Source of the DNA: Schmidtea polychroa
Taxonomy: Eukaryota
Reading direction: 5' to 3'
Assembly (NCBI GenBank): GCA_044892525.1
Contig: CM097885.1
Location: forward strand, 15,626,001-15,690,000
DNA: 64,000 bases
Position numbers and translations under genes: made by a program. The notes under the pieces were generated by a model that saw nothing but the letters and a program-made list of their open reading frames with translations, was not told the origin of the DNA and searched no databases. Below are positions 1 through 53,171 of this stretch, in pieces (positions within the stretch are counted from its first letter, which is position 1; each line of letters begins with the position of its first letter).

Positions 1-214
1 ATTATAATTTTAAAATTCAAAATTTAAGCTAGACATTTATAAGTAAACAATTTACATTAATGCATTTAGGATGAAATTAGTAGTGGTAGCACTTTAGGGG
101 GTGATAAATAAATTTTGTAAATTAATATTTTGATTCTCAAATACAAGATGAATAAATATATAGATGATCTATATTAGTGAAATTCTTAATAAGTAGATGA
201 CTCCTAGCAATACA

Positions 215-1887: not shown

Positions 1888-2524
1888 TGTGTAATGTACA
1901 GTTATATATTTTATTTATTTTTAAACAAGGTTTTGCCACGCCTTGTTATTTTATTGAGTGTAGATCGCAATGGAAAAAGAATAAAAAATACTATATAGCG
2001 ATAATTTACTATGGTAAATACAAATATCGACAAATCCCAACGTTTCAATCAAAAAGAAATTCATTCTATAATATTTATTCTACCATCCGTTATTTCTTTC
2101 AAACGTCAAAAGAAGATGCTCGAATTAATCCAAGAAAGTAAATTCGCCGAAATTAACGAAGGATTACCATTCGTTCCCTCTCTAACGTTTTACAATTTTT
2201 ATTTAAATAAAGTTGGATTTTTAAATTGTTCATTGGTTCATAAAACTAATTTATTTTAACAAAACTTTGGTGATTTCTTTGCAATACTATCTAAATTGTT
2301 CTTCTATTCGTTTTTATTCGCTTGTTCATATAACTAATTTTATTTTAATAATACTTTTGTGATTTCGTTTTATTACTGCCTAGATTTTATTTTGTCTACT
2401 CATAGTCATAAAATCCCTACACAACACGCACCCCGATTGTCCCGCCACATTTTTAACGGTGATTCTATCGGGCTCTCCAGATTTCCTCACACATACACAC
2501 TCACTATGACGAATATAATATAGG

Positions 2525-4635: not shown

Positions 4636-4643
4636 AATATAGG

Positions 4644-5600: not shown

Positions 5601-5966
5601 TCACTAATGTATCAATGAAAAATATTTATTTTGATATATTTTTAATTTGTATTTGTCGTTAAAAATGTTAAAATTTTACATTTCTGTATCAAATTGTAAT
5701 TTAAATAATTTTGTAATATTTAAAATAAATAAGAAAAAAATTAGCATTAATAATATTTTGAATTGCTCTAAAAGCTAAAGAACAATATTTATAAAATGTT
5801 TGTTTCTCTACTTCAAAATACAAATTATAAATATTGAAATTGTAAACGTCAGAGGAAATAATTAATATAATAAGTATGATTATTGAAATGTTGTAAAATG
5901 TTGAAATATTTTGATAATTTTGTTAATTTTAGAGTTAATTTTATAGTTTGTTAATTTTATAGTTAA

Positions 5967-7563
5967 ATGTTGGCAAGCGTATGGGAAATGATGAAGAGGA
6001 AAGAATTTGAATTTGATAATGAAATCAGCAGTGAATTGATATGCAGAATTTGCAAATGTTTAATGATAAAAGCTTGCCATGCTCCTTGCGTTTGTGGCTT
6101 TTGTTCTGATTGCATTGAAAATTATTTGGATGGAAAAGATAAATTCTGTCCAGGAGCAGCAAAACATTGTAGAAAGAAAATGATCAATTTCAATAAAGAT
6201 GTTTCTGAAGATCATGCAGCTAATTTAAGGATTTCAGAAGTGGTAGTGAGATTCCCAATGCAAAATTGTCAATTTAAAGATGAATTAGAGGTGATGGAGA
6301 GCCACATGAGAACATGCAACAAGCAACCAATAAAATGTTTATTCAATAGAATCGGATGCGAAATGAATGAGGTGGTAAAGGATGAAATGAAAGTCCATCT
6401 CATTGAGAACACTGAAGGCCATAGCAAATTATTGATTGATCAGATCAGTAATTTGTGCAATGAGATGCAAGCAATGAGAGACGAGAATGTGACATTGTGT
6501 AATGAAATTATCAATATCAATGTAAAATTGTATTTGCAATTAATTTTATTGATATTTAGGATTGGAGGTGAAATTGTGCAATATTGAAAAGAAAGAGACT
6601 GAAAACAGAGAAGATATAGAAGAATTGAATGAGGAAATGGTGGCATTGAAGAATGAGAACCGCTCATTGAGAATGGATATGGAGACAAATATTGGATCAA
6701 TCAATCAGGTTTGATTATTGATTTGATTTGATATTGATATGTTATTGATGGAAAGCAGGTCAGACAGCAAATTGAAGTGATTGAATCAAAATGTCAGCAG
6801 CAAATTGATGAGATGAAAGAGAAATGCGAGCAGCGGCTGCAACAGGTGAATGAAAAGGTGATTTATTGATTTATTGAAATGTTTGAATTTGAGATTCAGT
6901 TGCAGCTTGAAATGGCGAAATGTGCCAATGAAATTCGGCGGAATGAAACAAAATGTCAACAGCAAATTGATGAGATGAAAGAGAAATACGAGCAGCGGTT
7001 GCAACAGGCGAATGAAAAGGTGATTTATTGATTTATTGACATATTTGAATTTGAGATTCAGTTGCAGCTTGAAATGGCGAAATGTACCTATGAAATTCGG
7101 CAGATTGAAACAAAATTAGCAAATGAAAAATATGTAAATTACGGATTTTTTGAATGGGAAATCGATAAATTTTCACAACAAAAGAGAAGTAAAAATATTT
7201 ACAACAAAAGCGTTTTTTTCGGGACTAATCGGTTACAAAATTTGCTTGTGGGTGCTGATTGATGGTAATTGGGGTATTGGGGCTGGTTTCTGTTTGGTGC
7301 GTGGGGCAAATGATGAGCAATTGGATTGGCCGTTCAATCAATCCGTGACAATCGATGTGATCGATCCAGCAAATGGCAACATTTATATGAGGAAGTCAAT
7401 GAAATATTCAGATAGCCCTCTTGATGCAGCTGGATGGAGGAAACCTTCACACGACAGAAATAATTCAATTGGTATTTATTATTATCCTGATGCCAGCTCA
7501 ATCTATAAATTAGCAGCCAAAAGTAATAAATTGCTGCTCAGGAGCAGAATTGAAAAATTATGA
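5967..7563 (+). pseudogene. TRAF-family gene copy 1 (RING, TRAF zinc fingers, coiled coil, MATH) with +1 frameshift in the MATH exon
   Basis: Exons 5967-6521, 6568-6708, 6759-6857, 6900-7019 and 7062-7563 with GT-AG introns. RING CRICKC..CGFCSDC..FCP; MATH GYKICLW and DEQLDWPF. The last exon is 502 nt (extra A near 7205-7209). Confidence 0.88.
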
Positions 7564-8769
7564 CAAATTTAAAAAAACATTTATATAAAAAATTGATTTA
7601 TTTTGGGTTTTGATTTGTTTTATTATTTGCCTTTTTATTATAGCAAATTGCCGATTGCAATATCAATAATATTGCAAAATCAAAAATATTTAATATAAAT
7701 AATTATTTTAATTAAATTAATAATTAATTTGAAATTAAATTTAAATTCACCCGATTATAAGCGCTGACAAATCGCCTCAACAAATCAAACGCTCCTATGA
7801 CGAGTGAAACCGACGAGAAAACCGCCGCTGATGTTATATGAGTTTTGGAGAAATTATTGTTGCATTGAATGGCAATAAAATGCACTTAAATGCAATACTA
7901 AAACTGTTATATCAAATTGATAAATGCCTTAACATTTCACTAGCTATTTCTGAGGCATTTAAACGGAAATCCGCAACAGCAATGCTGACAAAATGTTCGA
8001 AAATTGCTTTCACATCTGTTTGGGTAGTAATTGTATTTGTACTGAGATCCTTTTTAAGTGCTAGTGACCTGATTTAATATTAAATAATGTAACATTTCAT
8101 AAATTTATTCACTTTTTCATTCGCTAAATTTTCAAATTAAAACAAAAAAAGATTTCATGTAAATTAATATTTAAATTCACAAATTTTGATACATTTTATG
8201 AATGAATTTTACTTATTAACAAACAACGAAATTTATCTTGAAATCTTGAAAATATTTTGGAATTATTTGAAAATATTATTCACTTATTTGAAATTATTTT
8301 GGAACCTGGATTAATTAGGTACATCAGAAGTTGAAGGTTGTTAAAGTCAAACTTACAAGTTTTGGGATCAGTGGCTTAACCAATGAGGTGGGTTAAGGGG
8401 GTTAAACCTCCCATTGGTTTTTAATTGTACAAATATTTGTCGATGTCAAGTGCCTAAAAGATCATCCATCTACATAAGAAAAAAACAAGACACTTACTAT
8501 ATTTTATTGTAAATATAATACTGTGACATATGTCTGTACTTTGTAGTCTATACTCTCAGTTAAATTTTATTTTGGCTATTTTTTTCTGATGTTCAATACG
8601 TATCTCCGTACTTTATGGAGTAAGCGAATGACGTCATTATTACAGACACCCCTATCATGAAGGTCTTAGTGCCTTCGACACCCTCAAAAGTCAACGCTTG
8701 AAATGATTGACCATATTATTAATAAATATTTCTCAACTCCAATCCCCTCACATTCATAAATTCCTGGTT

Positions 8770-11700
8770 ACGTTGGAATATTAAGAGTTTTGGTTGGCAA
8801 ATAACTCAGAATTTGGCAAGTATGTTTTTTTAATGTCTTAGTAACTGATAGATTTATCATTAGCTCTTACTTAAACGCCTCAATGGATATTTTACATTTT
8901 ACCATAAATATACCCATGCCAACCACCTTATTTCGAATGTACACAGTAGTTGAAAATCATTTAGCAGGTGAGCTCAATTTAGAAAGATGGGTTACGAGTT
9001 GGGAGAACAATTTATGCTTATCCTTGCAAATGTAGGCCTTTTCCTGCCGTTGCTTACACTTTACCGTATTTCATTCGTAACTCCGCATAACTATTGATTT
9101 TACCGCTAAATGCCCATCGCAAGCGACACTGGTGTTTTAATTTAGTTGGTCACCATCAACTAAAGGTGGAACTTTCACAAAAACTGAAAAAGCACACACT
9201 TTAATGAAACAACCACAACTCCTTTGCTCTACGCATTGCAATATCAGTCTGAACCCTTTGAAGGAATTAATCTCCCTACGGAAGATGTCCGTGTCTGGTA
9301 CTCTCGATTCGAAAATATATCGTTATCACTAAGTTTAATTCTTCTTTGCTTGTTCTTTCTAGATTATCTCTTTTCGTTTCTTCGACCTACTGGCGTTTCT
9401 GTTTACTTGCAGGTCGCCTTTAAACCCTTCGGGTAATTTGATTGTCCTTGGCAAATTATTTTGGATCCATTTTTAACGGTGATTGGAAGTCGAATTTTAT
9501 GAATCAGAGTGAAGGGAAATTTGCAATAGTTGGGGAAAATCGAACATAATATTCCAAATACAAATTTATCCTGCATAGTGAAGTGAAATGAGGTATGACA
9601 TAGAATGGAACCAGATGAGTCAGTAGATAATAGGTTTCAAATAAAATCCAGTACTTCGTTATGTCGGCTAATGCAATTAATATCAGTGAAATCGTACTAA
9701 TTCCAAACGAAGATCGAATATTGCTCCTGCCGGGCTGGAAACCGAGGTAATCAAAAAACTTTTGTAAATTTAAATTTTCCATAAATTAATTAAAGATAAC
9801 CCTGTATTAACATAAATTGAGGTAATCAACCAAATGTAAGGAAAATAAAGAATAAAATAGAGGAAAAATAATAGAATAAATCAAAAATTAAAACAAGTCA
9901 CTAAAATAAAATAAATAATAAACAAGTCGCAAACAGACAAAAGTACATAACCATATCCGACAAGCAAAGAAAAAATAATTAGAAAGAATAAAAATAAATA
10001 CCAGAAAAACAAAATATTACTAAACGAATAAATTATAATCAAAAAACAAAGAATAAAATACTAAATCAGGATCCAATAAAAAGCAGGAGAAAATGTGAAA
10101 ATTAAATTATTTAATAAATTATCAAAAGAAAAAGATAAATAACCTGGAAAAAGAACTTAAAAATAAGAAAAAACACAACTTCACACAACAGCTGGATCCT
10201 GATTAGACAAAAATTACTATATAACGAAAACACTTTATTGATTCCCTCAGTTCTAACAAACTTCATACAGGAACCAATTCAGCATCACTCTCATTGATCT
10301 ATTACTTGATTCTTATATTATATCGCAGCAAATTTTCAGAATTTTTATCAATCAGACAGGAAAAGAGAAATGTAAATTTTCGTTTATTATTTATGTACAA
10401 GTAGCATTATAATTTATTTGGATAAATATTATGATAGTTTTTAAATGTCTCACTTTTATCTTCACAATACGAATTTTTATGTTGAGATCCAGCGATGACA
10501 CCGTTCTACGATTATGAGGGTTAGAATGCGAAAAGCCGAACCGGAATGACTGAGGAAAATTAAGAGCATACATTGATTCCACCAGTGAGGAGAAGAGGAG
10601 AATGCATAAGTAGGAGAGAGAAATTCGGAAGGATTATATTGAGTCACAGGATTCACGTCAAATAGAAATCAAGGACAGATAATATCGAGGCTGGTAGGAG
10701 ATTGCAGATTGCAGATCGGCAAGCTAAGGAATTACTCCACAAATGCGATGAGATAGGAATTGATTGTACGAATTACGACAACTTGGGAATGGAATCATTA
10801 GAGGAAACGGAGTATGAGATGTATGGGTAGGTTGAGTAGCAATGGTCGACAAATGAGGAATGAATTGTTATTGAGGTAGGAAGGAGTGTGAGGTATAATT
10901 TCCATTCTGAGAAGGGTGTAATCGCTGAATTCTAGAGTCGATTCGATTTATTTTAATTATTCCTGAATTTGAGAGTTGATTGAATTTATTATGATTATTC
11001 ATCTATAAAGATATAGTATGACCCGTTTCTGAGGGTCGTTTGGCAATTGCTGACACTTGTGTCGGTAGTTACCAGATGATTTTCACAGATGGCGAAAATG
11101 ACCAAATCGTGTAAATAGAGTTGATTTTTCGTTGAGTGGTAACTCTCCACGGTAGTAATGGGCTCAATTCGCGGATTCGAATAAGAATAAATACTTCTAC
11201 CTTTCAACCGGCTACTACGAAAATTAGTCCCGTAATTGAAATCACAATACCGTTATCACATTCGATTTTCTGTTATAGGCACTTATATGAACCTAACATC
11301 AGTTGAGAAAGCTTTGACATTTCCATCAGTGAATGCCACTTTTAAGCGTTTGATTTCTTTCACTTCGATAGGTCAAGTTTCTTCGACAGTCCGTTAGCAT
11401 CAACAATTGCGAGAATTTCACGGTGATAGAATAGGCATTGGAATCCTTATCTGTAGGACAACATCCGGTGTACACAACACTCCACAAAATTTCACCTTGG
11501 CAGACTTGTAGGATCTAAGTTTCTTGCTATCATAAACATTCATAAACAGGAAGTCGACAATTCGTCTCGATAAATCTGACACACATAAACAATCAAAGTG
11601 AAGTTACGAGACATGACAGACAAATAGTCGAACCCAAGAATTCCTACTGAAACGGCTGCTTTGAATTAATCATAAACCCATCAGGTTAGTTTACTTTAAT

Positions 11701-12323: not shown

Positions 12324-13083
12324 TAATTAATATAATATGTTTGATGGGCCTGCATTGAATGTATAAAGTTGCCAGCAATGCTTATATTTTGAACGACGAT
12401 AATTTAAACAAAAAGAAAATCCCATAAATTTAAAGATATATTTATGACATGTTAAAAGCTTTAGTTAATTTAAATATAAAATTATTTCAATCAATTGTTA
12501 CAGTCGGAATTCGGTTCAACAATATCAAAAAGAATAAAGTGCAGACGGTACAAACGCGTGTCACTATCTTATCATTTTACGCCTTTATTGACACTCCTGG
12601 CTAAGGAATTTATATTTGGGAAAAAGATGAAAGTATGAAACTATTTCTATTTTGGGACAGAATTTAGGAACCAAGTTGGTTTTAATATAATAATTATCCA
12701 GCAAAGGTGAAATAAAAGAACCTAGACAATTATAGGCAATGCGTGACGTTAAACAAACAACAAATTAAAAATATTTACCATTTCAAAGACATTGGTTATT
12801 TCGAAATACAATTCATCATTTCTACTATCCTTTTCTTCGGTAATGGAGATCTCTTCAAACTGACCATCAAGGTCCAGCAATTCCTGAGGGGGTGCAGCAT
12901 AATTCGGTACATCATCTGTCATAATAGAAAACGATTCAATTAATAAAAATATATTTACCTATTTATATAGCATAGTTGTAGTGGACTATTTCTGGCATTG
13001 TGACAAATTCAATGTTGAAATTCAATTCTTTGAGTTCCAATTTTAATAGATCCTGGGGGATAAATAAAAAAAACAAAATATCA

Positions 13084-14385
<1,302 letters not shown>

Positions 14386-14403
14386 TGGTAGCAGAGCGTG
14401 GTT
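14386..14403 (+). promoter_or_regulatory. Primer-binding site, initiator tRNA-Met type
   Basis: TGGTAGCAGAGCGTGGTT immediately follows the LTR terminal CA and resembles the complement of the 3' end of animal tRNA-iMet (…CTCTGCTACCA). Confidence 0.85.
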
Positions 14404-17400
14404 CCGGCTAGCCAGCCGGAACAAGGTAATAGATGATTATATAATGTATTTTTTGTATTTACGTGATTATTTTGTGAATTATTTTATGAATTATAATATG
14501 TGTTATATTTTTATTGTTGAAACATTTCCCCTAGGGCCTGCCCTCCCTAACCCCATTAGAGGTGGATTGGCGCGGGTATTTGTCAAAATAATAACAGGGA
14601 AGACAATTACTCTCGAAGTTGAATCTAGTGACACGATAGAAAATGTTAATGCGAAAATACAAGATAAAGAGGGTAGTCCACCTGACCAGCAACGATTAAT
14701 TTGCGCGGGAAAACCATTAGAAGATGAGCGAACATTATCTGATTATAATATTCAAAAGGAGTCTACTTTGCGTTTAGTTTTGCGATTGAGGGGTGGAATG
14801 CAAATATTCGTGAAGACACTGACAGGAAAAACAATAACTTTGGAAGTAGAATCAAGTGATACTATTGAGAATGTAAAGGCTAAAATTCAAGAAAAAGAAG
14901 GGATACCCCCAGGGCGACAAAGACTTAATTTTGCCGGGAAAGTATTAAAAGATGGCCTAACGTTGTTAGATTATAACGTTAGGAAAGAAGCCACGGTACA
15001 TCTGGTTTTGGGGCTGGCAGGGGGAAGTCCAGTATCAGATGCGGAGTTCGAGGCGGGGTACAAGAGACGAACCGGGTGGAAGATTTCGTTAGGGCGTCTA
15101 CGTAACCGGGCCTTAGGAGATGGATCGGACCCTGGGGAAGATCAAAGGAGAATAGAGGCTTACGAAGATATGTATGAGGAAGTCATAAACGAATTGGAGG
15201 ACCTGAGGAATAATGCTCGGGAGTTAGGGCGGGAGAAAGAAGAAAAGGAAATTGAGGCAGATCTGAAACGGTTAGAAGCGGATTTCAGCAGAATCGGCGA
15301 TCTGGTCCTCACGCAGAAGGAAGAGAGTTTTAGAGTAGAGTCGCGGAAGGGCACAGAAAAATCATTTAGGAGCGAAGAGCCCAATGAGAAACAGAAGTGC
15401 ATAATGGGTTTGAAACCCTTGCAGCTGCCGATCTTTAATGGAAAGGTAATAGAATATCCTGGATGGAGGGCAATTGTGAGAGCCTGCATCGAGGACACGG
15501 ATGAGCCGAGTGAAAGAAAGTACTTGTACCTGAGACAGTACTTGGAAGGGAAGCCGCTGCAATTAATTGCCTATATTGGATATGGCTCGCAGGCTTTCGA
15601 GGCGGCGATAAAATTACTTGATGAAAGGTATGGGGGACCAGAAAGATCCTATTCCATGATGCTGGATGCGGTGCAGAGGTTCTTCCCAGTGAGGCTCAAC
15701 GTCTTGGAGGACCTAGAGCGGTTTGAAGAGCTGCTAGGAAACCTCATCCTGAATTTCAAGGATCAGAAGAGGGAAGGCGAGTTAAACAACGGGATGTTGT
15801 ATCACCAACTGCTGAAGAAGCTGCCAGAGACCATGCTGATTCAGTGGTCACGCCATTGTGATTCGGGGAGAGAGGGAAATGTGCAAACGCTAGCCGAGTG
15901 GATCAAAACGGAAGCTAATAGGCATCGGCAAGCAATGAGCATTCTGTTTGGAGAAGGGCGGGCAAAAGGTAGAACTGTCGCCCCAACAACTAACTTCGGA
16001 AATGCGAATAGGGGCACGAAGTTAACGGATAGTAGGCGCAAGATAGAGGTTAGCAGTGCTCGAAAAAAGGAACCAATTTGTGTGAAATGTGGTTCAGAAC
16101 ATTATTTAAATCAATGCTCAGAGTTCCTAAAGCTGACTGTTAAGGAACGAAATGAGTTTGTGACCAAGAAGCGGCTTTGTTACAATTGTCTTACAACAGC
16201 TCACATGGTTAGAGAATGCGAAAAACCGAGCTTTTGTAAGGACAGAGATTGTACTCGAAAGCATCACAATTTGCTCCATGGCTCAGAGAACAAAGTTGAT
16301 GGAGATCAAGAGCCGAGCAATGAGAACACATCAATGATGACGGTTCAAGATACACAGAGGAAGAAGATGTATGTTCCTTTACGAACGATTACAGCAAAGT
16401 TGATTAATAAAGGAAAGGCGGTCAAGATCAACGCATTGCTAGACGACGCTAGCAATGTTAGCTATATTAGCGATTGGGCGGCGCAAGAACTGGGGTTGGG
16501 AGGACAGTGGCAAAGCACTCCAGTTGGCGTGATTGGTGGACAATCACAAATGTTGGAAACGAAGCCCGTGACGCTATTATTGGCAAGCAACAATAACAAT
16601 TTAAAGGTAAATTTGAACGTCCTGGTGGTAAAAAAGGTCACTGGAGACCTGGGAATGTGTAACTGGAGGAAGTTATCGGCGAAATGGAAGCATCTGCGAT
16701 ATATAAACTTCCCGGTTATGAATACAAGGACGCAGATTGATGTATTGATTGGTTCTGATTACCCATATCTACATCGATCTATTTGCGAAGTAACAGGAGC
16801 AAAGCATGAACCAATTGCAAGGTTGACGCCCCTCGGATGGACATGTCTTGGTAGGATTGCAAGAAATCAAGCTCCAAGATGTTCGCATTTGGCTCAGAGT
16901 TATTTTGCGGTAACGGAAATGTTAAACGACGGAGAAATGATTATTCATGATGTAGATAATTCTGAAGAAATGGATTATATTAAAGAATGGGATAAAAACG
17001 ATGAAACACATGAAAACAAAAAGGCTAGCGAAGATGGAGATAGGGAAAGCAATGAATGTGAGAATTTACAATCTAGCGATATTATAAATCAAGATGGAAT
17101 AGAGCAAAATCGAGTCAATGAGAACGAGAATAATTATTCTGAATTTGTAAAAAGTAATACTGAACTATTAGGCAAAGCTTTTGATAAAGGAGACCAAGTT
17201 ACAGCAGATGAGTTAGAAAATATTGTCAAAAGTCACAATCAAGAAGAAAATTTTGAAAGTAAATATGATGAAACTGAAGTAGATGTGTCAGACAAGAATG
17301 AAAATTATAATAGTCATGTAGGCACAGAGGTTGTCGACATTAATGTTATCGAAAGACCGAATTCTTTGGTAGAAGATAATTTTCAAAACATGGAAGACGT

Positions 17401-17888
17401 AGTTAATGTTCAAACGGATTCTGCTTCTTCAGAAAATCATTTAGAAACTGATCGAATTATGCCAGATTCTGAGAGCAATGACAGTGATCTTAGAGTCGAT
17501 ATTGGTAAAGATCATACATCCGACACAGCTAAAGATTCTGAACAAAATACATTCACTCAACCAACGTCTGCTTTAGATGATATCATTGAAGACTATTCAC
17601 CTGGTTCCCCTTTATTAAATGAGATGCAACAGGGAAAAGTGGGGACTATTGAATTGGTGAAACATGCAGGAAGGATAATGGAGATATTGCAGCGAAACAG
17701 AATGAAAAGTGGCAGGGGCTTGGTCGAGTATGGCGATGGTGGGAGGAGAATCCACCATGATGTATCCAGAAAAGTGCGTGGTGCGGTGGCCTTTACCATA
17801 GCAAGATGGGTGTGTGAGGGGTATTGGAGAGAGGCAAAAGGAAAGGTTCCCCTGAAGTAATTGGGTGGTTGATCCGCTAGAAGGGATC

Positions 17889-17902
17889 AAGGAGGGGGGA
17901 AA
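17889..17902 (+). promoter_or_regulatory. Polypurine tract
   Basis: Unbroken purine run (AAGGAG, G-run, AAA) directly before the TG of the 3' LTR. Confidence 0.85.
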
Positions 17903-18955
<1,053 letters not shown>

Positions 18956-19637
18956 TATAACAGTCTCATATTATATTTTAAACAATTTAAATATTATTTG
19001 GAATATTTTATAAGATACAATAATATGAGTTATTTCATTTTATTCATATTTGTTTGTGTGCTAAATTTCATCTTTTTACAAAAACATTTTCTCAATAATA
19101 AACTATTGTTTAGATTATATTATATGAAAGCGAAACAATTTTTTATTTCTCTTTCATCTGTAACAATAAAGTTAATTTCGACCAAATTATATTAATTATT
19201 AATTAAAATTATTTTTTTCAATTTATTTAATTTGTTCTTTCCATTTGCTATACTCATGGCCTCGATAATGTAAGTTGATGTGATAAAGCTGTATTTATCT
19301 TATTAAATTTGCATTCATTTAAACAAACTACCTGATGAGACATAAAATGGACAAAATCATTGTACTAAGTACTAGTCCAGCTTGCTGGAATGCTTTAGGC
19401 AATGCCAAAGCTCTAGAGCCAACGATGAGATTGAATACAAAGATGCATCCGGTCTGTAACAGAAAGAAAACTCTTCATAAAACCAAAAATAAATGATGCG
19501 TAACAAACCCATCTGGAATAAGTGGCTGTCGGCATTTCAATTTATTTTTATTTCGAATATTAATCTAGTCTAAAAAATAAATTTTTGTAAAGTCTTCATT
19601 AATAAAATCCTGCTGATTTATATGAACTTTCTCCGTT

Positions 19638-22680: not shown

Positions 22681-23261
22681 CAGGAATCTTTATTGATGAT
22701 CACAAATAATTTTCACTTTACTCTGACAATCAATTCAACACTCCGCTCAGTGACTATACAATACTTATTGAAACACTCAGTGAAGAATAACACTCGAGTA
22801 AAACACCGGATTAAAAGATCCTTAACTACTGATTGGTTTATCGCCTGGGGCTTTGAGTTGGTTGTTTTCTTTGAGATTCTTTGAATTTTTTTTATCATTA
22901 TCTTTTCTTGTTTGTTTATTTATGATTCTTTCAGTTTGTTTCACGATTTTTTCTTCTTTCTGTTTTGTTTCTTGACATTTTGATTTTTGTGTCGCTTGTT
23001 TTTCTTACCAAAATTTAACCGTTAATTTTAAGGGCTAAAGGTCAGTGTCAATGTATACCTTGATGTAAATAAATAAATATTACAATATTTGTTTACTATT
23101 ATCAAGATTTAACTACAAATGGATTAGCATGAATAATAATTTTTCAACTTCCTATAATTTCGTAAACATTATATTTATTAAAAAACTTGACCTATTGTGG
23201 ATAACTCATGGTGCATGTGATGGTGGATGTATAATAAATATTAATAATAAATATTAATGAT

Positions 23262-24133
23262 TGTTTCAGCCGATTTTGGATGATTTTTTTTGTATCGCGT
23301 CTGTGTGCGCACACAGACGCGAGTAATAGGTAATTTATATTTTATATGTTATAAGTTATGTTTCTGTAGTAATAGATTTAAATCGATCTTTAATTTGTGG
23401 AATTTGGTTTTGATGGTTTGTTAATGGAAGAGCAGGAATCGTTTGTTTGAACTGGTAAATTGTGTAGAAATTTTGGATTTTTGTTTTTTAGTTGAAACAT
23501 GGAAGAAAATGAAGGCCTGAAATGTCGTCTTCCAATGAGCAATATAGCGAAGATTATTTTCTCACCTGAAGGGAGATCATTCCAAGTCGAATATGCATTT
23601 AAGGCAATTGCATTAGATGGATTGCTTTCCGTTGGTATTCGAGGCAATAATGGTGGTGTAGTAGCTACACAAAGAAAAGTTCCAGATAAAATGATTGAGA
23701 AGAGTTCAGCTACAAGATTGTTTAATATTACTGAAAGTACTGAATGGGTTATGACTGATATGATCCCTGATTGTCGATCTCAAACATGTCGTGCACAAAT
23801 GGAAGCAGATCGATTTAAATATAAAAATGGATATGAAATGCCTTGTGACATAACATGTCGTTGTATCGCGGATATTAATCAGCTCTACACCCAATCGGCT
23901 GAGATGCGACCATTAGGTTTATCAATGATAGCATTATCTTATGATATTGAAATGGATAAACCGTTATTATTCAAAACTGACTCCAGTGGCTTTGTAACTG
24001 GACATCGAGCTGTTGCAGTTGGTGGGAAGCAATTGGAGGCTAAAAGTTATTTGGAAAAGAAACTACGTAAAAATAGAGCGTGTGAAACTATCAAATACAT
24101 AAAAATCTTTTTGACGTGTTTTAGACGAAAACA
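23262..24133 (+). mobile_element. Solo LTR (872 bp) carrying a proteasome alpha-subunit retrocopy
   Basis: TGTTTC...GAAAACA ends, 6-bp TSD AATGAT (23256-23261, 24134-24139), and the palindrome TCGCGTCTGTGTGCGCACACAGACGCGA shared with the DUSP LTRs. Confidence 0.82.
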
Positions 24134-24191
24134 AATGATAATAATAACAAATAATAATATTAATAATAATGATAATAATAACAAAAAATAA
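23499..24191 (+). CDS. PSMA6: Proteasome subunit alpha type-6-like retrocopy, truncated at both ends
   Basis: IFSPEGR.FQVEYAFKAI, TQRKVPDK, FKYKNGYEMPCD, IADINQLYTQSAEMRPLG and LEKK motifs. Intronless; no stop inside the LTR; some conserved Gly residues substituted. Confidence 0.85.
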   Translation: MEENEGLKCRLPMSNIAKIIFSPEGRSFQVEYAFKAIALDGLLSVGIRGNNGGVVATQRKVPDKMIEKSSATRLFNITESTEWVMTDMIPDCRSQTCRAQMEADRFKYKNGYEMPCDITCRCIADINQLYTQSAEMRPLGLSMIALSYDIEMDKPLLFKTDSSGFVTGHRAVAVGGKQLEAKSYLEKKLRKNRACETIKYIKIFLTCFRRKQMIIITNNNINNNDNNNKK

Positions 24192-25631
24192 ATAATAATA
24201 ATAAGAATAATAATAATAATATAAAACGAAGATTCCTTGCCAGTAGCATCGATTAAAAATAAAATAATTAATAAATAAAGTTCTAAGATTTCAGTGCAAA
24301 TTTCATATTTAATAAAAAAATAAATGAGAATTTTCGACTATGAAATAATCTTATTTAATTGATTGAAAAATAAATAATAAAATTCCACTACTGGTCAATG
24401 TAGGCAAGGTGATTGCTCGCCATATATTCTCAGGAAATGGCCATAGTTTGCCTTTTGATGGACATGAAGGACATTTTGTATCCGGCTATTGCTGGAGGTA
24501 ATATTTTATATGGATGACACGTGTCAGCTGCCTGAGAGCCACAGGAATATCCTAGAAGGCCACTATTAGCATAGAAAGGAACTTATTTACTCCTTCACTC
24601 ACCAATGAGAATGAATAATAATTTAACATTATGCCATTTTCGCATCTAATGCTTTACTGATCCATCTCAGCCATGTAGAGGCGCCATTGAAAGCTTGGTC
24701 AGACCGCGTGCCAATACTCATGCTCATTGCGGAAAATCCAGTCAAATCGCCTTCATTGCCCTCATAAACATTACACAAATGCACTCAGTCTGGGACACAT
24801 TTCTCGCTATCCGTTCTGAGTAAGCATCCGTTTGTACAGCTCCTTTCATGCATGCCATCTGATATGTCAGTGTGGGATCTTGTCTGTGTACAAGTTTCCA
24901 CACCTTTAAATTGAGGATCTAGAAAGGATAAAATCAAATTCCTAATAAGTCACGTCACAATGTATCAATGCGTTCGATGAAATAACAAAAAACAATGAAA
25001 GATGACCACGACTACTGTTGAATGACATCAGAATGGTCCTGACAATTGCTCAATGGTGTCCATTAATTGGATTAATATTAAAAAATATAAAACAAATGTT
25101 TGATTTTTTGCTGAATCTGCTGTGACCGATTTCTGTGCCATATTTATGTACATCTATCAAAACATACACTCTCCAGGACATTCACTAGCACAGTGAACTA
25201 CAATTTGATAGAATCAATTTAATTAAGTGTCAATTAGGCATTGCATTGATCACAGATTTCATAAAATTATACAAATATTCGTTACAATTTAATTTTTTAT
25301 TGTGTTAAATCTAATCCAATTTATCAATATTGCTTTGTGCATTTGATGTTTTATCATTGCAACTATGTCACAATAAAATGTTATAAAATTATAATTTAAA
25401 TAATTTTGTAATATTTAAAATAAATGAGAAAAAAATTAACATTAATAATATTTTGATTTGCGCTAAAAGTTAAAAAACAATATTTATAAAATGTTTGTTT
25501 ATCTACATCAAAATACAAATTATAAATATTGAAATTGTCAACGTCAGACGAAATAATTAATATAATAAGTATGATTTATGATTGTTGTAAAATGTTGAAA
25601 TATTTTGATAATATTGTTAATTTTAGATAAA

Positions 25632-34058: not shown

Positions 34059-35969
34059 TAAAAAAAATTAATTAATTTTATAATAAAATAATAATTAATT
34101 AAATAATAAATAAAATATAAGAAAAATAAATAATAATATTTAAAATAATAAATAGTAATAATTAATAAAATATTATTAAATAAAAATAATTATGAGCGAT
34201 TATTAATTAATGTAAAATATATTAAAAATAATTAATTAATTTTAATAAAATTATAAAAATTTAAATAATAAAATTTTAATAGTAGAGTAATAATAAAATC
34301 GAATTTTTATTATTAAAAAAAAATATTAACAAAATTTAAATAATAGAATATAATTGATATTATTCAGTCTTAATAAAAATAAATAAATAATATTTAAAAT
34401 AATATTTACAAAAAAATTAATATTAATAATTAATAAAATATAATTTAAATTTTAATTTAAAAATAATATATAAAAATAATAAAAAATTAATAATAAAATA
34501 AAAAATATTAATAAAAATACATAAAAACTAATAATATTTAAAATAATTAAAAAAAATATTAATAAAATGTGATTAAATAAAAACAATTGTTTAAGAAAAT
34601 TAAATAATAGTAAGATATTGGAATTGAAAATTTTCAGTCTTAATAATAGTAATTAATTGAAAAAAAAATATATTAAAAATAATTAATTAAAAATATTACG
34701 AACAAAAATTAAATGATAATGGAATTTTTAGTCTTAATAATAATATATTTTAATAATAATTAATTAAATAATGAAATGAATAAAGTAATAATGAAATCTA
34801 TTTTTTCCAGTCTTAATAATAATAATTAATAATAAATAAAATATAATAAAAATTAAAAATAATATATAAAAATAATCAAATAATAAAAAATATTATTAAA
34901 AAATAAATATTAACAAAAATTTAATAATTAGATGAAGTTGATAAATAAAAATACATAAAAACTAATAATATTTAAAATAATACTTACAAAAAAATTAACA
35001 AAAATAAAATAATAAAATGTCATAGAAATTAATAATTAATAAATACAAATAATAATAAAATATATGATTAAATAAAAATGATATAATAGTGAAAATCGAT
35101 AGCTAACCTGCCAAGTGTCCACTGCTTGATAGTCAGAAAGCTCCTGGCGTTTAGCGATAAATTCCAATACAAAATTGCAGGTGAACTTAGAATCGCCCAG
35201 TCACTGGATAGCCATTTCCATAACCTAGAGAAGGAAATCCAAAATCAAATCGAATCGCAACCCCTCGACACCCATTACCTCCTCATTTGGCACCTCCTTT
35301 AACAACTCGATCACAGTATTTAATTCGAACTCTTCGGAGAATTTAGCGAGCCTTTTCAAGCACCATTTAGTCAGCTGATCCACTGATCCGATTTCTTGCT
35401 TATAATTAGACGCAACTGGCGCTTGATGTTATTGTTGCTGCTGTCTATGAACCGGATTGATCGATGGCTATTTCATATTACAATTCCATTCCCCATAAAT
35501 ATATAACCATTTTACTTCGTTTATTTTGTGGTTCTGTGGTTTAGAATTGCACTCGGCCGTTACCACCGCGGCTGGCACCACCACCTTATTATGTACAGGA
35601 ACATCGCTGGGAATCATATCCCAGATCGATTTGCCAACTGGGATCTGTGCGGGTTTGGGTGTCTGCTTCAGCAATGACTCCTTGAATGACTACAAGAACA
35701 GAAATCATCATCTTCTTGTAATTTTATTCAATTCCAATTCATTACTGTCACTTTATTCGTTTCTATTTGATTAACTTTCATTGCTTTTTCTATTTCTTTA
35801 GTTTTCTTGGCTTTCAATGCTTCTTCGGCTTGGATTTCTACAAGTGATTTGGCTGCAGGAGAAACATTTTGAGACAAAGTTTGTCCTGATTTCCAAGTGG
35901 AAGGAGTTTCAGTTTTATTTTGACTGGTCTTTAAATTATTCCATTATAAAGATTTGTATTATAATTACA

Positions 35970-36660
35970 GAATAATTATTGGATTATTATTGAATTATTA
36001 TTGAATAATTATTGGATTAATGAATTATTATTGGATTAATGAATTATTATTGGATTAATGAATTATTATTGGATTAATGAATTATTATTGGATTAATGAA
36101 TTAATATATGATTAATGAATAATTATTGGATTAATGAATTATTATTGGATTATTGATTTATTATTGGATTAATGAATAATTATTGGATTAATGAATTATT
36201 ATTGGATTAATGAATAATTATTGGATTAATGAATAATTATTGGATTAATGAATTATTATTGGATTAATTAATAATTATTGGATTAATGAATAATTATTGG
36301 ATTAATGAATTATTATTGGATTAATGAATTATTATTGGATTAATGAATTATTATTGGATTAATGAATTATTATTGGATTAATGAATTATTATTGGATTAA
36401 TGAATTAATATATGATTAATGGATAATAATTGGATTAATGAATTATTATTGGATTAATGAATAATTATTGGATTAATGAATAATTATTGGATTAATGAAT
36501 TATTATTGGATTAATTAATAATTATTGGATTAATGAATAATTATTGGATTAATGAATTATTATTGGATTAATGAATAATTATTGGATTAATGAATTATTA
36601 TTGGATTAATGAATAATTATTGGAATAATGAATTATTATTGCATTAATGAATTATTTGTG
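35970..36660 (+). repeat. 19-bp minisatellite (AATTATTATTGGATTAATG)n, intronic
   Basis: Direct reading; roughly 35 units. Confidence 0.95.
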
Positions 36661-39600
36661 TTATTTTTAGATTATTTAATTATTAGTGTTATTATTGGAT
36701 TATTGAGCTATTAATGGATTAAAGTAATTACTGTATAAAAAGTGCAAATTTAAAATCAATACAGAGAGAAAAATCCTGATATTGCCCATAATTTATTGAA
36801 ACACGTGGAATTCAACATGCATTTAAATTCCCGACCAATCACATGGAATCACGCGAGAATAACAATAATTTTTGCCCAAAATTTAAATAATATGAAAAAA
36901 ATAAAATCAATTACTTCATTTGATAATTCTAATTTTTTTAAAACTTCATGTTGCTCTTTTGCTATTTTTTCTTTCAAAGTTTCTTCAGCCTGGATTTGCA
37001 GCAAAGATTTTGTTGCAATTACCGGAGGTTTAATCAAAGCTGGCATGTCATTTTTTATAGATTTTTCCTTTTCAGTAAATAACTTAATAAATATAAATTC
37101 AATTGAAATTGGTTCCTAGTTGGTAAATAACAAGATTACTGGAATTTTGTTTGATTCAGACAAATTTGTTGATTTTGATTGCTTGTTTTTTCTATTACCT
37201 ACTTCTACTATTTTCGGTTTTACTGTTCCATCAACTTTTACTTTTAACTGAGATTCCTTTAGAGTTGGTAATTGTTCTTTTATTGATTTATCGGAATCTT
37301 TCATAACAACAGAACTGTCAGACAATTTATTTTCTGTGCCCATTTGATTGGGTGATTTTTGAGCCTGAGGAGCAGCATTCCAAATTGACTTTACCTGTTC
37401 TACTTTGCAAGTTTCTTTTGGCGAAGTATTTCGTACAACCTATTGGAGAAAATGAAAATAATTGAAGAAAAACTATAACTTAATCAATATCTGCCAGTCT
37501 ATTATAATCAATATTTTACGTATTTTAACTGTTTAATCAATATTTCAATATAACGATAATGCCGAGTAATGGATAAATATTGAAACATAAATTCCAACAT
37601 AAATATCGATCTACACAATTCTAATATCAGATATTGTGCAGATCAGACTTGAATATATATATTTTGATCAGATTTGAAAGTAACTGTGATATAGGAAATA
37701 ATATAAATCTATAATTACATTGGCTAAAATTTAGTTTTGATAAATATGATAAATACTCGACAAAGATTACATTTAAATGGGATTGGTAACTGAAGTACGA
37801 GAAAGCAAATATAGAAATTTTAATTTACTGGTCATTAACACAACACCAAAAAAGATTGCCAAATTCAGATTAAAAATTATTGTGTTGAATAGCGAAAAAT
37901 AGCGATTTAATTTTGATCAATAGACGTGATGAAAATAAATGAAATGTTAAAATAAAACAAAAGACAGACTTAAGATTAAATATAATTGTAATAGCACCTG
38001 GACACGGATTTATCTTCAAAATAAAAACGACAACAAGGCAAAAAGTATTTGTTCCAAAGAGAAAATAGTATCCAATTAAAAAATTATCCTTCCAATGCCT
38101 ATTTTTGGTACAATTAATCTTTTTTGTGTTTTCAATTTCAATTATTTTAAAATTTCAATTATTTTCAATGAATTTTATTTAGCAATAAATGAAATTTTGA
38201 TCTATAATCGTAATCAAAATAAATGAAATGTTAAAAAAATAAAAACAGAAAAGGATTTTATAGATAATATCAATAAAATAATATTTTTTAAAAAATTAAA
38301 GATAAATATGATAAATTGAAAAACCATAAGAAAATAATTGAAATTGCCTCAAATTAATAAATTATCCTTCCAATGCCTATTTTTGGTACAATGAATCTTT
38401 TTTTGTATATAATAAATTATTGGGTAATTTATTAATAAAAAAATTGATTTATTTTAAATATAAATCAATTTTAATTATTTTAAAATTTCATTTATTTTCA
38501 TTACAACGTCAGATCAAAAATTATTGTTGAATAGCAATAAATGAAATTTTGATCTATAATCGTAATCAAAATAAGTGAAATGTTAAAAAAATAAAAACAG
38601 AGAAAAGGTGAACAGAGTAAAGGATTTTATGGATAATAAGAACTTTTTTTTTTCAAATTTCACCACTAATTTATTTTCCATTATATTTATAAAAAGAAGA
38701 GCTTGAAGAATATGAATCAGTAAATTTATCAAAAACATCGATATATTTTCAGGCTTTTTAATAAATATTTTATATAGGGAATGGAATAATGGGGGCATTT
38801 CAATTGTAACAATCTATATCAACACCTGGTATTCTGAGATAATCATTGATGTATATTGTTCCTCTCCTCTTACTTGATTGGTTTCAGTGATTACATAGAA
38901 GGGAATATGCATACTTTTTAGGATTTTAGTATATTTAGTTATTTCAACAATCAAAAAGTTAATTAAATTCATTTTATGATATTGTTAGAAATTGTTATAT
39001 AAGTAATAAAGTAAGGGCAAACTATGGAATATATAATATAAATCATTAATTTTATTGTGTTAGTATAATTTCTTATTGGAGTCAGTATAAAATTCCTACC
39101 GTTGGTTGAATTTCCGGCTCATTGGATTTCTTTTCTTTTTTCATTTTAATACTTTCTTCCGCCTGTATTTGGATAAATGATGTGGAAATTGCGGTTGGAG
39201 TGGTTTTCACTGGACCCCATATTGATGGTGAATCAGATTTTCGATTTTCCAATTCAATTCTTATTGGTCTAACCTGAACAAACTTAATTTCAATAATGAC
39301 TTAGAGAAAATGAATTCTGGTTTTATGTAACACCTGTGATCGATTAATTAATAGTTCTGACCCTGGAAATAATAGTCACTTTTCAATGCAATCGATGTCC
39401 TATCTGACACTTAATTTTATAAATGATTTTTATTAAATCAATCATTATAAAAAAGTTATAAGAAAAAATAATATATTGTGATCAGTTATAACTCCTCAAG
39501 CTCATTTAATAATCATTTAAAATTTAAGCAGTTACTGTCTTAAATTTTAGGTTTAAAAATGCAATTGATACAAGTAAAATTCAATTTATGCCATCAATAT

Positions 39601-52374: not shown

Positions 52375-53171
52375 TGTTTCAGCCGATTTTGGATGGTTTT
52401 TTTGTATCGCGTCTGTAAGTTATGTTTCTGTAGTAATAGATTTAAATCGATCTTTAATTTGTGGAATTTGGTTTTGATGGTTTGTTAATGGAAGAGCAGG
52501 AATCGTTTGTTTGAACTGGTAAATTGTGTAGAAATTTTGGTTTTTAGTTGAAACATGGAAGAAAATGAAGGACTGAAATGTCGTATTGCAATGAGCAATA
52601 TAGCGAAGATTATTTTCTCACCTGAAGGGAGATTATTCCAAGTCGATTATGCATTTAAGGCAATTGCATTAGATGGATTGCTTTCCGTTGGTATTCGAGG
52701 ATATAATGGTGGTGTAGTAGCTACACAAAGAAAAGTTCCAGATAAAATGATTGAGAAGAGTTCAGCTACAAGATTGTTTAATATTACTGAAAGTACTGGA
52801 TGGGTTATGACTGGTATGATCCCTGATTGTCGATTTCAAGTATGTCGTGCACAATGGAAGCAGCTCGATTTAAATATAAAAATGGATATGAAATGCCTTG
52901 TGACATAATATGTCGTATCGCGGAGATTAATCAGCTCTACACCCAATCGGCTGAGATGCGACCATTAGGTTGTTCAATGATAGCATTATCTTATGATATT
53001 GAAATGGACAAACCGTTATTATTCAAAACTGATTCCAGTGGCTTTGTAGCTGGACATCGAGCTTTTGCAGTTGGAGGCTAAAAGTTATTTGGAAAAGAAA
53101 CTAAGTAAAAATAGAGCGTGTGATACTATCAAATACAGAAAGATCTTTTTGACTTGTTTTAGACGAAAACA
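52375..53171 (+). mobile_element. Second copy of the proteasome-carrying solo LTR
   Basis: Same ends and flanks as 23262-24133; TSD AATGAT / AACGAT; right arm of the palindrome deleted. Confidence 0.8.
52555..53171 (+). pseudogene. PSMA6: Frameshifted proteasome alpha-6 retrocopy
   Basis: Split over ORFs 52555-52908 and 52827-53081; 1-bp loss near 52854 and a deletion near 53072. Confidence 0.85.

Follow-up and report, generated by a model that had tools for sequence, protein, structure and literature searches.

How a spliced piece of a host proteasome gene comes to lie inside a unit with the ends of a long terminal repeat (LTR), and what that unit belongs to, are the questions raised by this locus. 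The window, a stretch of 64,000 nucleotides from the flatworm Schmidtea polychroa, was analysed together with related loci elsewhere in the genome; positions below are those of the window, and all oriented features given lie on its forward strand. The first-pass annotation had placed an intronless reading frame for the proteasome subunit PSMA6 in a TGTTTC...GAAAACA unit, and direct re-reading of the letters bears this out: TGTTTC starts at position 23262 and GAAAACA ends at 24133, giving a TG..CA unit of 872 bp (23262..24133). Its frame opens with an ATG at 23499, nucleotide 238 of the unit, and comprises 211 stop-free codons within the unit (23499..24133). The CA at 24132-24133 supplies the first two positions of a codon, and the frame remains open past the unit end. 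Pfam recognizes the families Proteasome (E = 1.7e-31) and Proteasome_A_N in the translation.

The start of the unit assigns it to a short-start subtype (TGTTTCAGCCGATTTTGG), a sequence with 221 genomic sites at no more than one mismatch and 0 for the control. Starts of the long type number 921, giving roughly 1100 LTR starts altogether. As had been reported, AATGAT flanks the unit on both sides (23256..23261 and, by direct reading, 24134..24139). The 6-bp length given for the target-site duplication did not hold, the duplication of the family being 5 bp (here ATGAT, 23257-23261 on the left); given these family-wide 5-bp duplications, the sixth matching base is probably due to chance. In a survey in which 16 dispersed PSMA6 copies were read, L018, L020, L021, L025 and L028 had 5-bp target duplications of their own and L019 had a 6-bp match, and six other copies lay inside (ATT)n, where a duplication is unreadable.

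Close to the 5′ end of the unit is a perfect 28-bp palindrome (23295..23322), the two arms of which abut. The 16-nt arm, TCGCGTCTGTGTGCGC, occurs six times in the window, in the PSMA6 unit and in the two LTRs of a sister element with a DUSP cargo, compared with 0 occurrences in 100 shuffles. The palindrome is part of the LTR 5′ end, as opposed to an unrelated repeat scattered through the genome. Other copies have 16-nt arms separated by a 29-nt loop, and from this comparison the palindrome is read as a collapsed form of the family hairpin. RNA folding gives a z of -3.5 at the palindrome of the PSMA6 unit and of -6.7 for the two-hairpin 5′ end of the DUSP 3′ LTR. At the opposite end, a poly(A)-like signal had been annotated about 30-35 bp before the terminus of both LTRs. 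The DUSP LTR and sister copies have a canonical AATAAA at the matching offset; the unit itself has a degenerate, A-rich CATAAAAAT resembling such a signal (24098..24106, 28-36 nt before the LTR end), and the tail of its subfamily is without a canonical AATAAA.

The host-derived part of the frame is a 527-nt stretch of spliced mRNA (23552..24078) covering approximately residues 13-195 of the roughly 247 of PSMA6. It is cut at both ends and, by protein alignment, is without about 50 C-terminal residues. In the host, PSMA6 (L076) is a gene with short introns on the same chromosome as the unit. When the two are aligned by blastn, 502 of 521 nt are identical, and the cargo precisely lacks introns 1 and 2, both of which interrupt the part that was captured. 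Identity to the host PSMA6 exons is 96.3-98.5% across 17 cargo copies. The cargo is a piece of spliced host PSMA6 mRNA and was captured recently.

An intronless gene piece between LTR-element sequences would also be expected of a chimeric PSMA6 retrocopy that arose once, with LTR fragments as flanks, and was multiplied only by the local 29/58-kb segmental array. Passive copying within the array does occur: seven copies of the unit at 99.9-100% identity and a set at about 93% lie on one contig at spacings of about 29 and 58 kb. A paralogous copy of the insertion lies in the adjacent 29-kb repeat unit of the window (52375..53171); it has matching flanks (AATGAT and AACGAT), its palindrome is mostly deleted and its ORF is broken. 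However, the PSMA6 unit also occurs elsewhere. A 26-mer from the PSMA6 core finds 360 genomic sites at up to two mismatches (control 0), and copies are spread over all four large contigs with differing target duplications. In addition, three elements (L072, L073 and L074) have paired PSMA6 LTRs around a primer-binding site (PBS), ubiquitin-Gag and a polypurine tract (PPT). These dispersed copies with duplications of their own, together with the LTR pairs, refute a one-off origin, to which we attach next to no probability.

The 872-bp unit is a solo LTR of a flatworm retrotransposon family. It would represent the remnant of recombination between the two LTRs of a non-autonomous Bel/Pao-type element. 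Full-length elements with paired PSMA6 LTRs had been anticipated by the first-pass annotation, and those found have closely matching ends: the LTRs are 99.3% identical over 854 bp in L072 and 99.0% identical over 710 bp in L074. In both of these elements the PBS follows directly on the 5′ LTR, and the interiors of the elements with paired PSMA6 LTRs are 86-89% identical to the ubiquitin-Gag of the DUSP element. A PSMA6-type LTR end adjoins the PBS at 10 exact sites (...GACGAAAACA-TTA-TGGTAGCAGAG), with the 3-nt spacer TTA keeping the frame. None of the ten copies that match this exact pattern has an intact PSMA6 middle, and all ten have a PSMA6 head and tail with a different middle. Only two elements, L073 and L074, were seen to have the full PSMA6 cargo beside a PBS, and both have partly decayed. 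At L027 a polypurine tract precedes a PSMA6 LTR; this copy had the look of a 3′ LTR belonging to a complete PSMA6 element, a reading rejected because L031 shows a deleted element beside Maverick-like genes.

The sister element, full-length and non-autonomous, occupies 13508..18782. Its 5′ LTR (13508-14385) contains the LTR ATG at 13787 and is followed by the PBS from 14386. The ORF (13673-17860) encodes DSPc, two ubiquitin units, a DUF1759 Gag, zinc knuckles and a weak aspartyl protease match, and is followed by a PPT (17891-17902) and by a 3′ LTR that extends from 17903 to about 18782 and runs into (ATT)n. Compared pairwise, the DUSP and PSMA6 LTRs are alike above chance in their terminal and palindrome region (0 of 500 shuffles). 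The TGTTTC start and the palindrome therefore stand among the features said to be shared, whereas the likeness of the leader motif GGAAG..GTTTGTTT (129 of 500 shuffles) and that of the 3′ tail (165 of 500 shuffles) are at chance level. The acidic codons after the ATG drop out as well, their positions not being homologous between the two LTRs. The PSMA6 and DUSP LTRs can nevertheless be linked as one family because intermediate dispersed copies share the DUSP LTR start and hairpin region: the first 23-25 nt of dispersed PSMA6 copies are exactly those of the DUSP LTR, and the hairpin region that follows matches at 76-87%.

LTRs of this family carry DUSP (DSPc), PSMA6, or a Ras fragment together with a TCP-1 chaperonin (Cpn60_TCP1/CCT) fragment. 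A further LTR (L057) carries a 200-aa piece that matches no known family, with 0 Pfam families and no homologue among longer proteins, and in one family member a DEAD-box fragment sits 3′ of the PBS. Mosaics also occur, such as L045, a DUSP LTR that retains a remnant of PSMA6, and the type in which a PSMA6 head and tail surround other sequence. The idea of one LTR family with swappable host-mRNA cargo is upheld by these cargos and mosaics. The sharply fixed slot that went with it is not, because the cargo flanks of PSMA6-type and DUSP-type LTRs, compared at entry and exit, show no significant likeness; the tail of PSMA6-L025 gives a marginal match to that of the Ras/CCT LTR (5 of 500 shuffles). 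On these comparisons, a single fixed slot is best regarded as an idealization.

In this family, which combines several cargo types with mosaics, the frame is continuous from the LTR into ubiquitin-Gag. The PSMA6 unit and the DUSP LTR were both found to be stop-free and to use the terminal CA as the start of a codon, as annotated, and they exit in the same phase. No stop precedes the LTR end in PSMA6, DUSP, Ras/CCT or unnamed-cargo LTRs. A PBS-leader probe was used to fetch 5′ LTRs, and in 30 of 30 the frame 'CA + next base' extends for 70-301 open codons back into the LTR, so exit phase is not random across cargos. The proposed reading of the cargo frame onward through the PBS into Gag likewise holds at most loci: the PBS-to-ubiquitin distance is in phase at 35 of 40 loci and out of phase at the other five, and 16 of 21 distinct lengths are in phase (binomial p = 7e-5). 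The in-frame open stretch 5′ of ubiquitin is typically about 310 codons, whereas the two alternative frames give 1 and 13. By a hand count among 150 scored matches of 1101 candidates, about 70 of 73 genome matches are stop-free from the PBS peptide through ubiquitin. None of the observations named beforehand as contrary to the annotated reading (an unrelated origin of the palindrome, a unit confined to a single site or never beside a PBS, random exit phases) appeared on testing.

A putative leader intron (AAG/GTAATA..CCCCTAG/G, about 14425-14533) was rejected because its splicing would shift the frame. In the contigs compared, no joint supports splicing of this GT..AG stretch, and the joints present there are copy length variants.

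The continuity of the frame bears on where the cargo lies in the genomic RNA. With the LTR identity unchanged, the cargo could be placed in U3. Transcription would then start just before the AATAAA tail, R would be very short, and the genomic RNA would not have the LTR ORF at its 5′ end. The ORF would go untranslated or, in the manner of MMTV sag or HIV nef, be expressed solely from the region of the 3′ LTR. The distance of merely about 30-35 nt between AATAAA and the LTR end is compatible with a short R plus U5, and the two strong hairpins at the LTR 5′ end could be promoter-side DNA or U3 RNA elements. However, with the cargo in U3 there would be no reason for the frame that opens at the LTR ATG to remain stop-free and in phase across the PBS, over at least 16 different leader lengths, as far as ubiquitin, and the stop-free LTR ORF in every cargo type would be left unexplained. 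We consider it unlikely.

The account that we favour, and hold to be probable, is that the unit is a solo LTR of a non-autonomous Bel/Pao-type family in which an LTR-borne frame leads into ubiquitin-Gag and host mRNAs have been taken up repeatedly. The polyprotein frame would open at an ATG inside the LTR rather than after the PBS, and would cross the PBS and a short leader before reaching ubiquitin, captured as one or two units and fused to Gag. Transcription would start upstream of the LTR ATG, placing the cargo within an R region of roughly 650 nt. The stretch of LTR between the ATG and the tail that bears the poly(A) signal would repeatedly gain pieces of spliced host mRNA, likely through switching of reverse transcriptase onto co-packaged mRNAs as templates. 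Translation would yield a fusion of LTR ORF, ubiquitin and Gag, and because ubiquitin stands between the N-terminal extension and Gag, host deubiquitinases could remove the extension at that point. With the extension cut off, almost any in-frame insert would be tolerated, and a cargo would need only to stay open and in phase. Mobilisation would be in trans.

A more far-reaching proposal is that the Bel/Pao-derived LTR acts as a coding gene trap. The ORF in an R of about 650 nt would be translated as a Gag extension that is cleaved at ubiquitin, making the element a natural ubiquitin-fusion vector that samples abundant host mRNAs (PSMA6, DUSP, Ras, CCT, eIF4A-like) and gives rise to hundreds of expressed truncated copies of housekeeping genes. 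We put this forward tentatively, as plausible rather than probable, from features of the sequence.

The cargo could alternatively be a selected accessory gene, with truncated PSMA6, DUSP or CCT manipulating the host, for example as dominant-negative subunits. An intact cargo ORF in 9 of 16 dispersed PSMA6 copies, and cargo families of up to hundreds of copies, would be in keeping with such a role. So would the retention of the catalytic HCxxGxxRS loop in some DUSP copies, although this loop is deleted in L041, L051 and L055. Selection on the PSMA6 cargo was looked for via omega over the copies and none was detected: omega is about 0.8 whether it is computed on singleton changes (84 N, 30 S and 5 stops) or on shared ones (11 N, 4 S and 1 stop), and only two differences from the host are present in at least 15 of the 17 copies. 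Also against an accessory function are the trimming of the domains at both ends, including the loss of the PSMA6 C terminus, and the free replacement and mosaicism of the cargo. The captured genes, moreover, are mostly represented by abundant housekeeping mRNAs, as chance co-packaging would predict. An accessory function is thus quite improbable. Because omega is close to neutral, the PSMA6 cargo looks like a near-neutral passenger that is retained just as an open frame.

The Gag of the family points to Bel/Pao. The DUSP element ORF matches DUF1759 (PF03564) at 33.9 bits (cut-off 25.4), and L072-L074, the elements with PSMA6 LTRs, have a homologous Gag. The non-autonomous copies have just a weak, below-cut-off match to Asp_protease_2 (E = 0.004) and no Peptidase_A17, and genes for reverse transcriptase, RNase H and integrase are absent from the family copies read. 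Long open frames of 1900-2238 aa (the longest 2189-2238) hold a protease region that is 49% identical and a full-length Pfam Peptidase_A17 (E = 1e-44). These frames are about 2 and 3.5 kb 3′ of exact copies of the 28-nt PBS, a link made by coordinates alone, and one long-ORF element has short-type LTR starts 6636 bp apart. The long-ORF elements were not among the 150 scored matches (of 1101 candidates) to the stretch from PBS peptide to ubiquitin, an absence that carries no weight for or against ubiquitin in them. Bel/Pao-type long-ORF elements with the exact PBS are likely to be the helpers of the non-autonomous family.

Several known systems share parts of this arrangement. MMTV sag lies in U3 and HIV nef overlaps it, so that ORFs inside LTRs have precedent; those ORFs terminate inside the LTR, with expression from the 3′ end, whereas the frame here is stop-free and exits in the phase of Gag. 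Acute transforming retroviruses carry gag-onc fusions, and ubiquitin insertions in cytopathic pestiviruses create a cleavage site for host proteases. As in those viruses, spliced host cDNA appears to have been captured during replication by a genome that is defective and helper-dependent, and the captured polyubiquitin piece could provide a deubiquitinase cleavage site in the pestiviral manner. In contrast to gag-onc, the cargo here is without sign of selection, and it is carried by an endogenous retrotransposon of a flatworm host. The GAG ATG of Ty1 is within the 5′ LTR, and a frame that starts before the PBS and runs through it is common to Ty1 and the present family, in which a continuous open frame from the LTR ATG crosses the PBS into Gag. 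The part of the Ty1 frame within the LTR consists of a few dozen codons of Gag proper and has no host cargo, whereas here about 200 foreign codons precede the PBS and ubiquitin lies between them and Gag. The sections of PMC4974528 that deal with Ty1 place its PBS inside the GAG ORF.

In LTR-mediated retroposition, as described for Drosophila and other animals in the relevant sections of PMC5131818, the retrocopy is interior, between the LTRs, and is identified by its position between discontinuous element parts with microsimilar junctions; maize Bs1 and captures in rice and sorghum are further cases cited there and in PMC13317346. The likenesses to the present family are a piece of intronless host mRNA, cut at both ends, within LTR-element sequence, a proposed origin by template switching, and a chimera that can transpose again (PMC5131818). 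Relative to the cases in those sections, the cargo here is inside the LTR, and hence duplicated at both ends, and is in frame with the polyprotein, and one family has alternative cargos and mosaics. For BARE-2 and Veju, the corresponding passages of PMC13317346 describe the entry of foreign sequence into the LTR by aberrant template switching. There, as here, new LTR sequence founds a subfamily, but the inserts described, of transposon or unknown DNA, function as promoters or spacers and are not a host coding ORF leading into Gag. Among open-access papers and bioRxiv preprints, we found none that describes ORFs of host-mRNA origin within an LTR and in the frame of ubiquitin-Gag.

LTR retrotransposons have been known to capture genes as rare interior inserts, whereas a single family here has alternative cargos, recombinant mosaics and hundreds of young copies. 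Its cargo is inside the LTR, in the polyprotein frame and upstream of captured ubiquitin. If this frame is translated, the family would provide a new route by which a retroelement can accommodate host coding sequence and disseminate it, and a ready natural experiment on template switching in that part of the genomic RNA which is repeated. It would also be a large source of truncated housekeeping-gene copies, which annotation pipelines will mistake for paralogues or pseudogenes of PSMA6, DUSP, CCT and other genes of this genome. Were the LTR to act as a gene trap, possible side effects would be proteins with a dominant-negative action or small RNAs that target the genes of origin. With its frame of LTR, ubiquitin and Gag, the family makes testable the idea that ubiquitin may serve a retrotransposon as a self-cleaving linker.

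The 872-bp solo LTR that carries a piece of spliced host proteasome alpha (PSMA6) mRNA as cargo occupies window positions 23262-24133. By direct reading it begins TGTTTC and ends GAAAACA, and AATGAT abuts it on both sides (23256-23261 and 24134-24139). Its ORF runs for 211 codons from an ATG at 23499 without a stop within the unit, the final CA supplies codon positions 1-2, and the frame matches Pfam Proteasome (E 1.7e-31) together with the alpha-subunit N-terminal signature. The sister element in the window (13508-18782) is full-length and non-autonomous and has DUSP cargo in its LTRs. Its 5' LTR (13508-14385, ATG at 13787) has the same exit phase, the codon phase at the LTR end, as the PSMA6 unit; the 3' copy is 894 bp, with 16 bp extra. 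The PBS, from 14386, begins TGGTAGCAGAG, and the DUSP frame of 1395 codons includes the PBS, two ubiquitin units, a DUF1759 Gag, zinc knuckles and a weak aspartyl-protease match.

The first-pass annotation had reported the LTR ends, target duplication, stop-free ORF and proteasome alpha-6 identity of the PSMA6 unit, all of which were confirmed, and every feature that it listed for the unit and the DUSP LTR was found in the sequence. A 16-nt arm, TCGCGTCTGTGTGCGC, occurs at six sites in the window compared with none in 100 shuffles, namely both hairpin arms of each LTR of the DUSP element and both arms in the PSMA6 unit, where they are contiguous and form a perfect palindrome of 28 bp. In pairwise comparison, the proposed likeness between the two LTRs stood in the terminal and palindrome region (0/500 shuffles) but not in the leader motif (129/500) or the tail (165/500). 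Within the DUSP cargo, 42 nt bounded by GT and AG (13944-13985), inside the conserved phosphatase domain, are missing from one contig of sequencing run X2; alternative splicing of the host transcript, a cryptic intron or faulty assembly could account for this. Downstream of its protease remnant, the DUSP element has an acidic region (16924-17622) that aligns with a 2.2-kb contig of runs X1 and X2. The contig diverges from the element beyond both ends of the match, and the alignment itself skips 45 nt and has 12 nt inserted. The acidic region is probably a further captured host transcript in place of pol.

We located the host gene with a query of 60 residues from the C-terminus of a flatworm PSMA6, a part of the protein missing from the cargo. 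The gene lies on the same contig as the PSMA6 unit and has short introns; the cargo lacks both introns of the captured stretch, each removed precisely from GT to AG. The capture spans unit nt 291-817 (window 23552-24078, 527 nt), corresponding to about residues 13-195 of about 247. Identity to the host exons is 502/521 nt (96.4%) for the window copy and 96.3-98.5% for 16 dispersed copies, and the best database proteins for the cargo are flatworm PSMA6 at no more than 64% identity, one reason to regard the host as a flatworm. The PSMA6 cargo is spliced host mRNA, recently captured. A second PSMA6-like stretch (G000:C3:79621495-79624620) has in-frame stops, extends over the C-terminal part missing from the cargo and may represent either a pseudogene or a capture that was longer and took place earlier.

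With the host gene as reference, we compared 17 copies over 407 non-synonymous and 112 synonymous sites. Changes confined to a single copy comprised 84 non-synonymous, 30 synonymous and 5 stops, those in 2-14 copies comprised 11, 4 and 1, respectively, and only 2 changes, both non-synonymous, were present in at least 15 of the 17. Omega is about 0.8 in the single-copy and shared classes alike, with few shared changes to judge by, and gives no sign of selection on the PSMA6 piece as a protein. The cargo frame is without stops or frameshifts in 9 of 16 copies. Judged by its codons, the PSMA6 cargo looks like a passenger.

The assembly searched comprises 781 Mb, mostly in four very large contigs, and copies of the PSMA6 unit lie on all four among the 40 scored of 1980 candidates. 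The 26-nt PSMA6 core has 360 genomic sites and the 28-nt PBS 319, each with up to 2 mismatches; the long-type LTR start has 921 exact sites and the short-type start of the PSMA6 unit, TGTTTCAGCCGATTTTGG, 221 with up to 1 mismatch. The reversed-pattern control gave 0 in every case. Among 16 dispersed copies that we read (L015-L030), 13 have the start TGTTTCGACCAGTCAGAGG.. or a one-base variant, then the first hairpin and then the large hairpin; their first 23-25 nt match the DUSP LTR exactly, and over the hairpin region they share 76-87% identity with it. No TGTTTCGACCAGTCAGAGG-type start was found within the 330 nt viewed of L017, L022 and L029.

Five of these copies have independent 5-bp target duplications (L018 ATGAT, L020 CATAA, L021 ATATT, L025 CTACG and L028 CATAT), from which we take the family duplication to be 5 bp; L019 has a 6-bp match (CCCCGT) and L016 an imperfect one. 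The duplication described at the window unit is therefore present but probably only 5 bp long, its sixth base being a likely chance match. (ATT)n/(AAT)n microsatellites hold many family copies, including the DUSP element (13026-13507 and about 18790-19000) and 6 of the 16 PSMA6 LTRs (L015, L023, L026, L027, L029 and L030), where the target duplication is unreadable. The family could prefer such targets, or the microsatellites could have expanded from the ends of the LTRs. A polypurine tract lies upstream of L027, but that copy is part of a deleted element. At L031 (G000:C3:25014500-25024400), long minus-strand ORFs at about 1000-9900, beside a deleted PSMA6-LTR element, look by eye like Maverick/Polinton-type integrase, capsid, packaging ATPase and cysteine protease.

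PSMA6 LTRs adjoining a PBS and ubiquitin-Gag, as the first-pass annotation predicted, exist. The pattern of a PSMA6-type LTR end, 0-3 nt and the PBS has 10 sites, all ..GACGAAAACA-TTA-TGGTAGCAGAG, in which the 3-nt TTA spacer keeps the frame. In one element (L072), LTRs 99.3% identical over 854 bp, each with a PSMA6 fragment, enclose the PBS, two ubiquitins and Gag. In another (L074), the LTRs are 99.0% identical over 710 bp and the PSMA6 frame continues across the PBS as far as ubiquitin; PSMA6 LTRs, PBS and ubiquitin-Gag are also combined in a third element, L073.

A PBS-leader-ubiquitin probe yielded 30 loci, about 22 of them distinct insertions, the remainder including near-identical array copies; the window's DUSP element was among the 30. 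The expected common exit phase was borne out, the frame being open for 70-301 codons back into the 5' LTR at all 30. DUSP cargo occurs in several versions, of which some have lost the catalytic loop and others contain an extra insert. Another cargo fuses a Ras-family fragment (Pfam E 1.4e-7) to a TCP-1/CCT chaperonin fragment (E 1.4e-40), and the approximately 200-aa cargo of L057 has no Pfam family and no homologue that we could find. A DEAD-box (eIF4A-like) fragment lies in frame in the leader between PBS and ubiquitin at L053 (Pfam DEAD, E 2e-10) and L054, and also at L063, L065 and L068; the leader is a second place of host mRNA uptake. The inference that one LTR family repeatedly captured host mRNAs is supported.

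All 10 pattern-found PSMA6-type LTRs have the PSMA6 LTR tail and a middle that is not PSMA6, and two (L065 and L071) also keep the PSMA6 LTR head MEDNECLKCRISMSNIAK; cargo has therefore been replaced and recombined. L045 has a PSMA6 remnant within a DUSP LTR. Family LTRs range from 846 to 1074 bp. The suggested fixed slot holds in that cargo sits between a hairpin-bearing 5' end of about 130-185 bp and an AATAAA-bearing tail of about 40-60 bp, but the cargo flanks show no significant conservation between PSMA6-type and DUSP-type LTRs, so 'slot' is to be taken loosely. The LTR of L069 (G000:C2:147601238-147604265) is only 192 bp, its hairpin 5' end almost abutting a PSMA6-type tail followed by the PBS; either its cargo was deleted or it hints at the form of an LTR without cargo. 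By alignment ends, with borders uncertain by a few nt, the host-derived part is 527 nt in both window cargos (DUSP, 13799-14325; PSMA6, 23552-24078), the DUSP borders being the points at which contigs depart from the element on either side, and the PSMA6 borders the limits of the host-gene alignment. The Ras and CCT cargo is similar in total size. The equal sizes may be coincidence or an LTR length constraint.

At 35 of the 40 loci where ubiquitin was found, the PBS and the first ubiquitin core are spaced in phase. With each spacing counted once, 16 of 21 lengths keep the phase, compared with an expectation of one third (binomial p 7e-5). Upstream of ubiquitin, the in-frame open stretch is typically about 310 codons, compared with 1 and 13 in the other frames. 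A genome-wide protein search gave 73 scored matches reaching from the PBS-encoded peptide through ubiquitin, and by hand count about 70 of them contain no stop, many lying in open frames of 1000-1395 aa. The leader is AT-rich, with stops estimated from composition at about 8% of random codons, and a frame open across it is therefore the main argument for a translation start in the LTR. The ubiquitin part opens with the tail of a preceding unit, as would be expected of a polyubiquitin mRNA origin, and the last unit ends ..LAGG immediately before Gag.

We propose a transcription start downstream of the hairpins and upstream of the LTR ATG, which would place the cargo in a long R, at both RNA ends. 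The main alternative, that the cargo lies in U3, would leave the frame conservation unexplained, and we consider it improbable. With the cargo in R, its 5' copy would be translated as an extension of ubiquitin-Gag, and Gag could be released by deubiquitinases. New cargo would arise by template switching onto co-packaged abundant mRNAs during copying of the LTR-proximal part, and mosaics by switching between co-packaged elements bearing different cargo.

All copies read are non-autonomous, with ubiquitin-Gag, sometimes a protease remnant, and then other sequence. A protease-region search found relatives about 49% identical (for example, C1:172428996, C2:8516828 and C1:119785070), whose open frames reach 2189-2238 aa and include full-length Pfam Peptidase_A17 (E 1e-44); these frames follow exact 28-nt PBS copies at distances of about 2 and 3.5 kb. 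In one such element, short-type LTR starts lie 6636 bp apart, the PBS is 795 bp after the first, and the 18-nt start is one base off that of the PSMA6 unit. These PBS-sharing elements are the likely Bel/Pao helpers.

A decayed paralogue of the PSMA6 unit lies at 52375-53171 in common flanks; the insertion is therefore older than the 29-kb duplication, now within an approximately 58-kb higher-order tandem array. Identity is 99.8% between array units spaced about 58 kb (1-6038 and 58006-64000) and about 90% between sub-units spaced about 29 kb (23352-24920 and 52416-53908). The PSMA6 solo LTR is in both sub-units and the DUSP element in only one, so the latter inserted between the two duplication rounds. 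A repeat scan also found a long tandem array of 19-bp repeats at 35853-36700, with at least 37 copies about 91% alike.

Known cases for comparison include gag-onc fusions, ubiquitin insertions in pestiviruses, and sag and nef. In a full-text search of open-access papers and bioRxiv preprints, no account emerged of an LTR that holds a host mRNA ORF in phase with ubiquitin-Gag. It is established that LTR elements capture genes by template switching; in the cases of PMC5131818 the retrocopy sits in the element interior, whereas in the PSMA6 family the host mRNA ORF lies inside the LTR. Other sources describe foreign sequence entering the LTRs of BARE-2 and Veju (PMC13317346), extra ORFs gained downstream of pol (PMC5408684) and a PBS inside the GAG ORF of Ty1 (PMC4974528). 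The PSMA6 unit itself is an inert solo LTR of a gene-capturing retrotransposon family that is unusual, young and abundant.
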